This document shows, piece by piece, positions 28,809 through 31,800 of a stretch of DNA of 64,000 bases; the first letter of the stretch is position 1, and the number at the start of each line of letters is the position of its first letter. This DNA comes from Candidatus Latescibacterota bacterium (GTDB lineage: Bacteria > Latescibacterota > UBA2968 > GCA-2709665), in NCBI GenBank assembly GCA_965205485.1, contig OZ242180.1, positions 4,192,001-4,256,000 on the forward strand, in the 5' to 3' direction. The position numbers were made by a program.

Positions 28809-31800
28809 GGGAGCCACAAGCCCCGCGCACGAAGCCGTCTGCTGGAAATCGGTGGATAAAGATAGCCGAATCTCCCGGTGGTGTCAAGCAAAAACGGCGC
28901 AACCCATGGTTATGTAAAGAGCTGTAAATTTGAGCTCTATGTAGACACGTGAACGTAAATCCGTCTTGCTATCCGGACGCATGTAAGGTATATTTCAACC
29001 CGGAAAACCGGCACGGCCCCGGTGAGTTCATAACTTACGTATCGAGGAAACCCCGAATGCGGACGTTCACTGCACTCTTGCTGTTCCTTCTGGCGGGATC
29101 AATTGCGACGCCTGCCGCCTATGCCCAGGGCGGTGTCAGCTGACGGCGCCCCGTGCTTCCGGGCGGAAGCCTGATGAAGAACAGTCTGGCTGTACAGGAT
29201 CAGTTGAAGTTCAGCGTACATTACGATTACGAATTCCTGTCCGACCCCCACTACGGGTCTCGCGCCATACCGAACGTCAATCGCGAGCGAACGGATAATG
29301 CCACAACCACCGTGTTCGCCGCCCTCGGCGTTACCGGGCACATCGGTGTTGCGCTCGCCGTACCCTTCCGGTCAGTTACCAACGAAAAGGTACTGTTGCG
29401 CGGACAGAACCCCAATCAGTATGAGGGCGGGAAGTATGTCAGGCATGCTTCCGGTCTCGGCGATATCGTGGTTATGTTGAATTACGCCGTACCCTTCGCG
29501 GCGGGCTTTCCCGGGATGCATTTCGGCATTGGTTTGAAGCTGGCAAACGGATCCGTCGATGCCAAAGACCATTACGGTGAGCGTTTTGCCGACAACCTGC
29601 AGATCGGGTCGGGAAGTGTGGACCCCATACTCGCGCTCAATATACTCCATCGCTTTGAAAGCCTGACGGTTTCTGCAAGCGTGTTTACGCGCATCACCTC
29701 AAGACAGAACATCTACGGCTACAAATACGGAAACGAACTGCACGCAAGCCTTTCCCTGGAGTACGAGAGCGAAGGCTGGCTGTACGGCGGAGTGAGCCTG
29801 AAAAACCTGATCACCTCGAGGGACCGTTATCAGTTCGGCCAGATAACCAGAGAACGCGGAGGTAAGTGGATGTATCTTTCGCCCGAATTGGGGTTCAACG
29901 TACTGGACAATCTGAGCGTTGAATTTCACCTTCCCGTTGTCGTATTCCAGAACGTGAACGAGAGCCAGCTGACGTCGGACTATCTGGTCGAGCTGAGCAC
30001 GTCATATGTATTCTCGCTCTAGGCGATCCGGCATGCACCGAATTGGAAAGAAAAGCGGCCGGTTCATTTTTTTTGTCCTGTGGGCAACCCTTTTTGCGGC
30101 GGGCTGCTCGCTCTATCTTGACGATGAAGAGCCTGAGCAGTTCTACGAGATCGAAGATTTCGAAATCCTCGAACTCGGTGTGAATATCTCCGATATGGTC
30201 GTGGATCCGAACCAGCCATATCTTTATCTGGCCGATTACGGAAACAACCGGATACTCCGTATCCACCTTGGCAGACAGATGGCAGTAGACGGGAGCCTTC
30301 AGGTTGGTTCCCACCCCGTCGACCTCGACATCACGCCGGACCAGGGCCGTCTGGTGGTGGGTTTGAACGGCGAATCGAACCTCAAGGTCATCGACCTGAA
30401 TTCATTCGCCATTGTCAAGACGGTTCCTTATTCGCTGAATGACATTTCCCACATCGTCTGCGGAACCGACTCGATCGTATATGTTTCCTCTCTGGATGAA
30501 CCGCTGCTTATCGCCGTATCGATTGTGGATAAACTCGAAACGAGCGGGAATGTGCGCTCCGGCGCACTTCAGATGAACCACGGAAACCGAAAACTGTTTG
30601 TTGCCGCCAGGAACAACGTGCTGAAATACGACGCTTCAGGACAGTTTCCCTCTACCGAGACCACCTCCACCCGATTCAGTTTCTCAGCCAGGATCAACGA
30701 TTTCGTCATTGGCCCCCTCAACGAGCATCTATATCTGGGTCTGGAGGATCCGGAGGACCGCAGCCACGTTAAGGACCTCTGGTCGTTCAGCGCCGACGAC
30801 CTGACCCTGACGGGGAAATACGAAATCAAGTCGGCCGCACTGGGGCTCGCGCTGAGCCGCGACGGCCGCCGTTTGTTCGTTGCACCTACCGACGCCGATG
30901 AAGCAGGCGTCTTTATAGTTGAATTCGATACGCAGACCAAACTGGAGAAGAACTACTTCCTTGCGGCAGGAAACCTCAGAGAACGAGGCATCGCCATCGA
31001 CAACAACGATGAGTATCTGTATCTGGCGGTGTACACGCCTGGAGATGACGATACCTTCGAACCCTACAATATCGATTCCTACGACCTGCAGCGAATCAGG
31101 ATAGATTGACAGGCTTATGCCGTTGCGCGCCGGCGCAACGCTTTCGCGATGAATGTTTCGGAACGGTTCCCGCGATCAGACGTCGCCCCCCTGAATTTCG
31201 CGAAAGTACCGGCACAGACGGGAGACGGGACACGCGCTGCAGGACGGATTCCTGGCGGTGCAGACTGTCTTCCCGAACTCAACCATGTTGATATGGAAAG
31301 ACCGGGCCTGGCCCTCCGGGATCAGAGGCGCGAGTTCCAGGTGTGCTCTTTCACGGCTGCATTTCGCTGAAACAACCCCCACCCGGCGAAGAACGCGATA
31401 TACATGGGTATCCACGGCGCACAGGTCGCGATCAAACGCAAAAGCAAGTACGATGTAGGCCGTCTTGATCCCGATGCCTCGATGTTCGGTCAACAGGGAT
31501 ACCGCGGTCTGAGTTGGCAGGTCCCGCAGGAAATCCAGGTTCAGGTTTCCGCGTTTTTTCTTCAGCCAACGCAGGAACGCCTGCATATTCGGGGCCTTTG
31601 AATTCACCAGTCCCGCCACCCTTATGGCGTCCTTCAGCTGTGCTTCGTCCGCGGCCATCACGTCGCCCCACTCCGGAAACCGCGCACGCATCCTGTCAAA
31701 AGCCCTGTCCCTGTTTTCGTCGTTCGTATTCTGGGACAGGATCGTCCGCATCAGTGCGTCGAGACCATCCGGCCGCGCGCGCTCAAGGTCCCATGAGGCT

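Follow-up and report, generated by a model that had tools for sequence, protein, structure and literature searches.

Described channels and exported selenoproteins closest to the locus

The closest described systems to the protein considered here are the COG4313/PF13557 outer-membrane channels, represented by Pput2725 (PDB 4RL8) and, in the accessible part of PMC4493636, by SphA and TcpY. A 12-stranded barrel with an N-terminal segment in its lumen is common to these channels and to our predicted protein. According to that part of the Pput2725 paper, the N-terminus of Pput2725 almost closes the lumen from the periplasmic side, and the words "cysteine" and "disulfide" do not occur there (PMC4493636). 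A second group comprises PF13557-like barrels, mostly from Bacteroidota, that begin Q-x-C-C or Q-x-C-x-C and whose Atlas clusters are labelled "MetA-pathway family" or "hypothetical". The amyloid secretion barrel FapF of Pseudomonas (PDB 5O65) has the same fold, with 15% identity to our protein. Among selenoproteins, the GSU2204 family (NF041027, labelled MtrB/PioB) and the TonB-dependent receptor of FCYXU type (NF049945) also have a predicted selenocysteine (Sec) in an exported barrel-type protein, and these are the outer-membrane-type entries in Table 1 of PMC13188914.

The window, a 64,000-nucleotide stretch of a Candidatus Latescibacterota genome, contains a gene at 29057..30022 (+) that is predicted to encode a COG4313/PF13557-type 12-stranded outer-membrane barrel of 321 residues including Sec. 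The best fold match to its structural model was 4RL8 (Z 26.1, rmsd 2.3 over 253 residues), with a weak sequence-profile match (E 0.035) and 11% identity. It differs from Pput2725 in having a plug that is 11 residues longer and carries the predicted Sec, and in its thioredoxin and propeller partners. The Q-x-C-C barrels are homologous to the Sec forms and have a Cys pair at the Sec position, but they form a separate clade, have two Cys where our family has a lone Sec, and are about 20-27% identical. From the GSU2204 and FCYXU families our protein differs in matching neither NCBIfam model and in having a lone Sec rather than CxxU. The recoding signal is shared with the E. coli fdhF type and with selD of the same genome (UGA, 11 nt, a 6-bp stem and a G-rich 4-nt loop); the host gene differs. 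The recoding mechanism looks ordinary, and what looks new is the placement of Sec in the plug of a channel.

The survey's finding that the family is missing from catalogues held. NCBIfam has no family for the window protein or for six other read-through members, and its only matches to the forms fused to thioredoxin are thioredoxin matches below cut-off. The 119 selenoprotein families in Table 1 of PMC13188914 include no COG4313/PF13557 entry, and the terms PF13557 and COG4313 do not occur in the accessible part of the PMC12013277 supplements. A literature search outside subscription papers found no description of the family and nothing joining Phenol_MetA_deg with thioredoxin. The family is a genuine and very probably Sec-containing branch of the COG4313 channels, outside the catalogues examined, with Cys relatives and thioredoxin partners. 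As such it would add an unusual type of selenoprotein, a channel destined for export, from uncultured phyla, marine ones among them, and it points to thiol or selenol chemistry in the plug of a large COG4313 group now labelled "phenol degradation" or "transporter".

The gene, its in-frame UGA and the hairpin

Translation of 29057..30022 gave 28 residues, a TGA (29141..29143, +), 292 residues and a TAG stop, with the N-terminus before the TGA reading MRTFTALLLFLLAGSIATPAAYA-QGGVS. A Shine-Dalgarno-like GAGGA, read from the sequence, lies at 29044..29048 (+), 8 nt 5' of the ATG, and genus orthologues have GAGGA or a one-base variant upstream. The first 23 residues (29057..29125) form a predicted signal peptide whose cleavage between A-Y-A and Q was assigned by eye, such that the TGA, at codon 29, would specify residue 6 of the mature protein. 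Without read-through the longest open reading frame is 289 residues from GTG 29153 and has no signal peptide; database calls of the gene start either there or at ATG 29174 (282 residues). Among database homologs, a signal peptide is likewise missing from most members of a set of 56 and from every member of a set of 13, and in the carrier phyla the gene is systematically truncated by gene callers. The paralog at G000:C1:4798808-4799782 (-) encodes a protein with 52% identity to that of the window and has a TGA at the same site. These translations bear out two points made by the survey, that both genes carry a UGA between signal peptide and barrel and that export depends on read-through. Its assignment of the barrel to the PF13557 type was likewise sound, the match (E 8.9e-6) scoring 26.4 bits against a curated cut-off of 22 and the predicted fold agreeing.

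In bacterial SECIS elements, as in E. coli fdhF, the spacer after the UGA is as a rule 11 nt. At the window locus a putative SECIS upper stem-loop, GCTTCC-GGGC-GGAAGC (29155..29170, +), starts 11 nt after the TGA, and in selD of the same genome the TGA is followed by 11 nt and CAGTCC-GGTC-GGACTG, with spacer, stem length and loop size equal to those of the barrel hairpin. This strict geometry was found after 310 of the 140,081 in-frame TGA triplets genome-wide (0.22%), including those of both paralogs and selD; a relaxed scan gave 126 candidates, which were mostly noise. Rfam gave no SECIS family at the site and matched only two nearby tRNAs. Minimum-energy folds of the whole segment often favoured pairings other than the SECIS stem, so the evidence for this element comes from covariation rather than from folding energy.

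Covariation was assessed in 50 distinct 33-nt sequences, with the expectation derived from the codon usage of each gene. The most informative pair, +15/+24, joins two third codon positions at which changes on both sides are synonymous, and it was Watson-Crick in 47 of the 50 sequences (14.5 expected), as CG in 30, TA in 14, GC in two and AT in one, the other three having G-U. Positions +13/+26 were paired in 49 (17.9 expected) and +14/+25 in 41 (13.2 expected), the 5-bp stem was whole in 48 (8.1 expected) and a G occupied +18 in 35 (15.6 expected); the two inner stem pairs are fixed by Pro and Gly codons and are uninformative on covariation. Pair counting on 35 of the 56 TGA-bearing loci gave 92.4% of cells paired with 26 changes on both sides, while none of 500 shuffles reached as high and slid controls reached at most 69.5%, although kinship among the sequences inflates both the shuffle and the covariation tests. 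The hairpin is thus conserved beyond protein constraint. The survey had reported it, with compensatory changes, in 17 of 18 loci; the covariation was upheld, and the count was too low, as a 6-bp stem, CGCTTC/GAAGCG, closing a loop of 5 nt is present at the eighteenth locus (G008) too.

The genome encodes selA, selB, selC (tRNA-Sec) and selD, the last itself with a TGA. Among carriers of the family, selA was found in 17 of 18 own-phylum genomes and, in three other carrier sets, in five of five, four of five, and four of five above the cut-off plus one partial match; the carriers without a selA match, G044 and G177, have tRNA-Sec. This co-occurrence is consistent but weak evidence because the base rates of selA are high (131 of 168 own-phylum genomes; 222 of 301 genomes versus 18 of 19 carriers in another phylum).

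An alternative reading of the TGA, as a true stop, a pseudogene lesion, or a Trp or Gly codon under another code, would fit the five database proteins that have W at the site and G184, a 1.6-Mb incomplete genome in which neither a full selB nor tRNA-Sec was seen. The W is, however, best read as the gene caller's choice of code. TGA ends 1200 of 2115 long open frames and is the commonest stop in the genome, and the code is accordingly standard with TGA a normal stop; the sole tRNA with a UCA anticodon is tRNA-Sec. Moreover, the codon, located after the signal peptide, was TGA in 56 of the 57 family loci examined and TAA or TAG in none, the barrel body is under purifying selection (610 synonymous versus 304 nonsynonymous codon changes), and the codons that also encode the SECIS element had 23 synonymous and no nonsynonymous changes. 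Stop usage, the tRNA set, codon conservation and selection largely refute a stop, a lesion or another code, and we regard these as extremely improbable. Based on the conserved TGA, the covarying hairpin and the Sec genes, which support the survey's reading of the codon, the UGA at codon 29 is almost certainly decoded as Sec.

Distribution of the family and its cysteine relatives

The family proved to be much wider than the survey had seen, extending to several further phyla. The 57 loci span about eight phylum-level groups and, by their records, come from Latescibacterota, Marinimicrobia/Fidelibacterota, KSB1, Calditrichaceae, Acidobacteriota, Armatimonadota, Poribacteria, Ignavibacteria and Alphaproteobacteria; the exception to the TGA, L108, is a 23% match that lacks the motif. 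The closest relatives are recorded as Candidatus Latescibacterota or Gemmatimonadota. A search of the own phylum matched 35 of 168 genomes and reproduced the survey's count of 34 matches in 18 genomes with one TGA, the carriers being 15 genus members with two copies each together with G043, G044 and G008. None of twelve weak own-phylum matches (L046-L057; E 1e-14 or weaker) was interrupted by a stop within the matched stretch. The search also matched four of 167 genomes in the phylum to which G175 belongs, and all four matches had one TGA; in the phylum of G173, 19 of 301 genomes matched and all 19 matches had one TGA, the loci in both cases partly overlapping the 57.

Because no part of a 15-sequence alignment was conserved well enough to seed a locus search, smaller alignments were used, with patterns drawn from the barrel body and not from the N-terminus. 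Three subfamilies were distinguished by their motifs: Q-G-G-[VI]-S-U-R-R-P in that of the window (35 loci in the pattern search, of which 14 had already been counted and were dropped), Q-V-K-U-A-[PSA]-[SP] in that fused to thioredoxin (15 loci), and A-V-A-U-R-R-P in a third (two loci); a metagenome scan gave one locus (L109). When 54 loci were tested (two were skipped), 53 had an open-frame hydrophobic 10-mer ahead of the TGA, compared with 2.9% of 69,503 control TGAs.

The survey had found no Cys homolog, and among the closer homologs (the 56 and 13 database matches) there was indeed no Cys at the site. For the wider group the claim is wrong, since a sister clade begins Q-x-C-C at the Sec position. 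A search of the whole library gave 445 representatives at E 0.001 or better, and in a crude screen of the best 150 of these, 59 had CC or CxC within their first 60 residues, 19 had a wider Cys pair near the N-terminus and 72, many of them truncated, had neither. An alignment of 56 Q-x-C-C sequences was homologous to 33 Sec forms across 285 columns (hhalign probability 100, E 3e-54) in a profile comparison that represented Sec as C and is biased at that column. When Sec was masked, MAFFT placed it at the second Cys of the pair in 33 of 33 forms, one column off the gap-free count. Gap-free counting favours the first Cys: a Pro at +6 is present in all 33 Sec forms and in 44 of 54 Cys forms, and a Tyr at +27 in 23 of 33 and 41 of 54, respectively. 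Under either alignment the Sec position coincides with the Cys pair, with an ambiguity of one column.

Trees were built without the plug, from 82 rows (quick) and 48 rows (careful), and no root was inferred. The Sec forms, together with six non-Sec forms, were separated from the Cys and no-Cys groups with branch support of 100/98. The six, which are known from protein calls alone, have Ser (P0166, P0172 and P0017), Glu (P0069), Ala (P0047) or Pro (P0006) at the site, and they need about four changes on the tree, none of them to Cys. As these nested homologs have Ser, Glu, Ala or Pro, the barrel can apparently persist without a chalcogen. P0017, a Ser form nested in the fusion clade, lacks the thioredoxin domain, which speaks for thioredoxin as a partner of Sec, although this is one case.

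The predicted plug, its gene neighbours and possible roles

A structure was predicted for the mature protein from 122 sequences with Sec entered as Cys (pLDDT 94.5, pTM 0.89), and its strand pattern was that of a 12-stranded barrel behind a plug of 25 residues. The plug (mature residues 1-25; 29126..29200, +) contains Sec6 and a predicted helix at residues 13-18. Residue 1 of 4RL8 aligns with model residue 12, and the pore-spanning linkers of the autotransporters EspP and NalP align with model residues 1-12. From these aligned ranges we infer that the plug sits in the barrel lumen and that Sec6 would lie further up it than the N-terminus of Pput2725. Of the 33 Sec barrels, 24 have no other Cys. 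Since Sec occupies the position of the Cys-Cys pair of the sister clade, usually with no second Cys present, it is most likely a reactive selenolate.

Thioredoxins recur near these barrels, as judged from flanks of 1.5-4 kb, some of them cut. Several N-terminally truncated library representatives have a thioredoxin domain at the C-terminus. A C-terminal CxxC thioredoxin is fused to the barrel in 12 of the 15 loci of the fusion subfamily, the other three being cut or gapped. In the window subfamily, a TlpA/ResA-type gene was found within 4 kb at 10 of 20 loci outside the genus, the other 10 having none within about 4 kb, and TlpA-like genes also occur at L044, L045 and L073. No thioredoxin neighbours the window copy of the barrel; directly upstream of the paralog is a gene for a secreted TlpA/ResA-type protein with W-C-x-x-C. 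Directly downstream of the window barrel is a gene for a predicted beta-propeller lipoprotein (30033..31109, +; Pfam Lactonase/SGL), with its lipobox Cys25 encoded at 30105 and followed by an acidic stretch; the model (pLDDT 87.6) matched generic seven-bladed propellers. Within the same flanks a propeller gene adjoins all 34 loci of the window subfamily (14 of 14 in the genus and 20 of 20 elsewhere). The two paralogs of the window genome each keep half of a TlpA-barrel-propeller unit, and barrel, thioredoxin and propeller may be regarded as a small module. A Pfam scan of 56 chosen neighbours found no metal-resistance genes and no aromatic-degradation genes, and no fap-type genes were seen among the neighbours scanned, in which no dedicated fap search was made.

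Based on these observations, we propose that SelB recognises the hairpin located 11 nt downstream of the UGA and directs Sec to codon 29, so that signal peptide and barrel would be made as one chain. Once cleaved, the protein would form a COG4313-type outer-membrane channel of 12 strands with its N-terminal segment threaded in the lumen and Sec near the tip. There, Sec could act as a selenolate that captures a soft ligand, either a soft metal ion or a thiol or sulfur-selenium species, or it could be an oxidation switch of the plug. Selenium species are among the candidate ligands because, according to the accessible part of PMC13188914, prokaryotes have no known high-affinity system for selenium transport. 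Gene context suggests that a periplasmic CxxC thioredoxin, fused or encoded nearby as a TlpA/ResA-type protein, keeps Sec reduced or resets it, and the adjacency of the propeller lipoprotein points to it as a probable surface partner. Lone periplasmic thiols generally need a reductase. One objection is that, were Sec placed towards the outside of the lumen, the periplasmic thioredoxin would have access to it only prior to folding or during movement of the plug. Taken as a whole, the reading we favour is a lumen plug that is tipped with Sec and depends on a periplasmic thioredoxin for its service, and we put its chances a little above even. More speculatively, these proteins may be a class of redox-gated channel in which the lone plug Sec covalently captures cargo at the outer face, a dedicated periplasmic thioredoxin releases it and the surface propeller is a capture lid; this would amount to thioredoxin-driven outer-membrane transport without TonB, and we give it only an outside chance of being correct.

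Three other roles were weighed against a thioredoxin-serviced plug. The survey had suggested that Sec is a selenium-dependent gate on expression rather than a catalyst, inserted but chemically unimportant, with the UGA tying export of the channel to the selenium supply. The suggestion stands insofar as nested non-Sec forms exist, in which the losses led to Ser, Glu, Ala or Pro but in no case to Cys, and in that, failing read-through, the gene could yield no more than a 28-residue peptide and a barrel lacking its signal peptide. A gate would be free to take any position in the 5' part of the gene, however, yet the UGA position is constant across family proteins that are 22-30% identical and matches the Cys pair of the sister clade, and the fused or adjacent CxxC thioredoxins would otherwise have no evident substrate. 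A chemically active Sec is therefore likelier, and we consider a mere gate decidedly unlikely. Export of a polypeptide, with the barrel as a FapF-like export or assembly channel for the propeller lipoprotein or an FG-GAP/ASPIC-UnbV protein and the Sec plug as a redox gate or disulfide-handling site, draws on FapF being the top match in Foldseek and second by Z (23.8, rmsd 2.7), on the constant propeller, and on FG-GAP/ASPIC-UnbV genes, which are multi-copy, near 19 of the 20 window-subfamily loci outside the genus (and four of 15 fusion loci). It is rather unlikely in our view, as a propeller was near none of the 15 fusion or three A-V-A-U loci, the FG-GAP proteins mostly have type IX secretion tails and so a route of their own, and the model has no extended N-terminal region like that of FapF.

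Alternatively, the barrel may be an uptake channel for sugars or organic solutes, such as breakdown products of alpha-glucans or the hydrophobic molecules proposed for COG4313, with Sec having no role beyond tuning the plug. The accessible part of PMC4493636 links COG4313 channels to the uptake of hydrophobic molecules. Several Marinimicrobia loci lie among alpha-glucan genes, including those for CBM53 with a sugar ABC transporter (L076), CBM20 (L083) and X25 (L089), and further glucan genes encode an alpha-amylase (L103), GH97 (L086) and, beside L062, GH57. Against this, alpha-glucan genes are absent from the flanks of the window copy, of the paralog and of the KSB1 loci, and the invariant barrel residues (E54, K88, R106, D113, N195 and D233) are polar or charged, unlike those of a hydrophobic conduit, making solute uptake unlikely.

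Two sequencing runs touched the locus. From the single RNA run, X1, one contig of 208 nt fell in the propeller gene, whereas the barrel gene had no contig; the run is uninformative on expression or habitat. A DNA contig from run X2, which may be the source sample, corresponds to 28900-29295 with no differences and spans the TGA.

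Surroundings of the barrel genes

Immediately upstream of the barrel gene (window positions 29057–30022, forward strand), and divergent to it, genes for tRNA-His and tRNA-Arg were found on the reverse strand (28650–28814), a stretch that is possibly an integration site. The same strand also encodes a small multihaem cytochrome c (26506–27105), a secreted protein of 199 residues in which the CxxCH motif occurs four times.

In some genus members (loci L014, L015, L017, L018, and L026), a repeat element of approximately 100–130 nt was observed between the barrel gene and the gene for its neighboring beta-propeller lipoprotein. 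Its translation is K-S-P-S-G-L-R-P-A-L-A-V, and resembling text was also identified at 4084437 and 4964411 of contig OZ242180.1, to which all remaining coordinates refer unless a locus is named.

Upstream of the TlpA gene of the paralogous Sec barrel was a gene for an NHL-repeat lipoprotein-like protein of 409 residues (about 4800400–4801600, reverse strand), which the NHL gene adjoining another barrel locus, L044, resembles. At locus L065, the gene that comes directly after a thioredoxin-fused Sec barrel encodes a lipoprotein of the di-haem cytochrome c peroxidase type (CCP_MauG; 5200–6555). Another fusion-subfamily barrel, the database protein P0214, has two CxxC thioredoxin domains in tandem at its C-terminus.

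Sec genes in another carrier genome

Three tRNA-Sec matches above the cut-off were identified in carrier genome G177, in which selA and selB had no match; this genome is possibly a mixed or incomplete bin.

Other TGA codons followed by hairpins

A relaxed genome-wide hairpin scan returned 126 candidates, mostly noise. Tandem redoxin-like genes (4604745 and 4605772, both forward), each with a TGA within Y-Y-L-G-H-N-U-x-x-C and a hairpin 3' of it, are likely UxxC selenoproteins. At 2288421 (reverse), two open frames, 1051 and 778 codons long, are linked by a TGA that lies in the UxxC motif S-F-U-R-E-C and is accompanied by a 6-bp hairpin; this is possibly a large selenoprotein. Further sites had the motifs U-H-A-P (4124761, reverse; presumably formate-dehydrogenase-like), C-A-A-U (382849, forward), which we take to be SelW/Rdx-like, T-T-F-P-U (5003318, forward; assumed to be redoxin-like), and D-U-C-G-A-S-S-C (1284143, forward).
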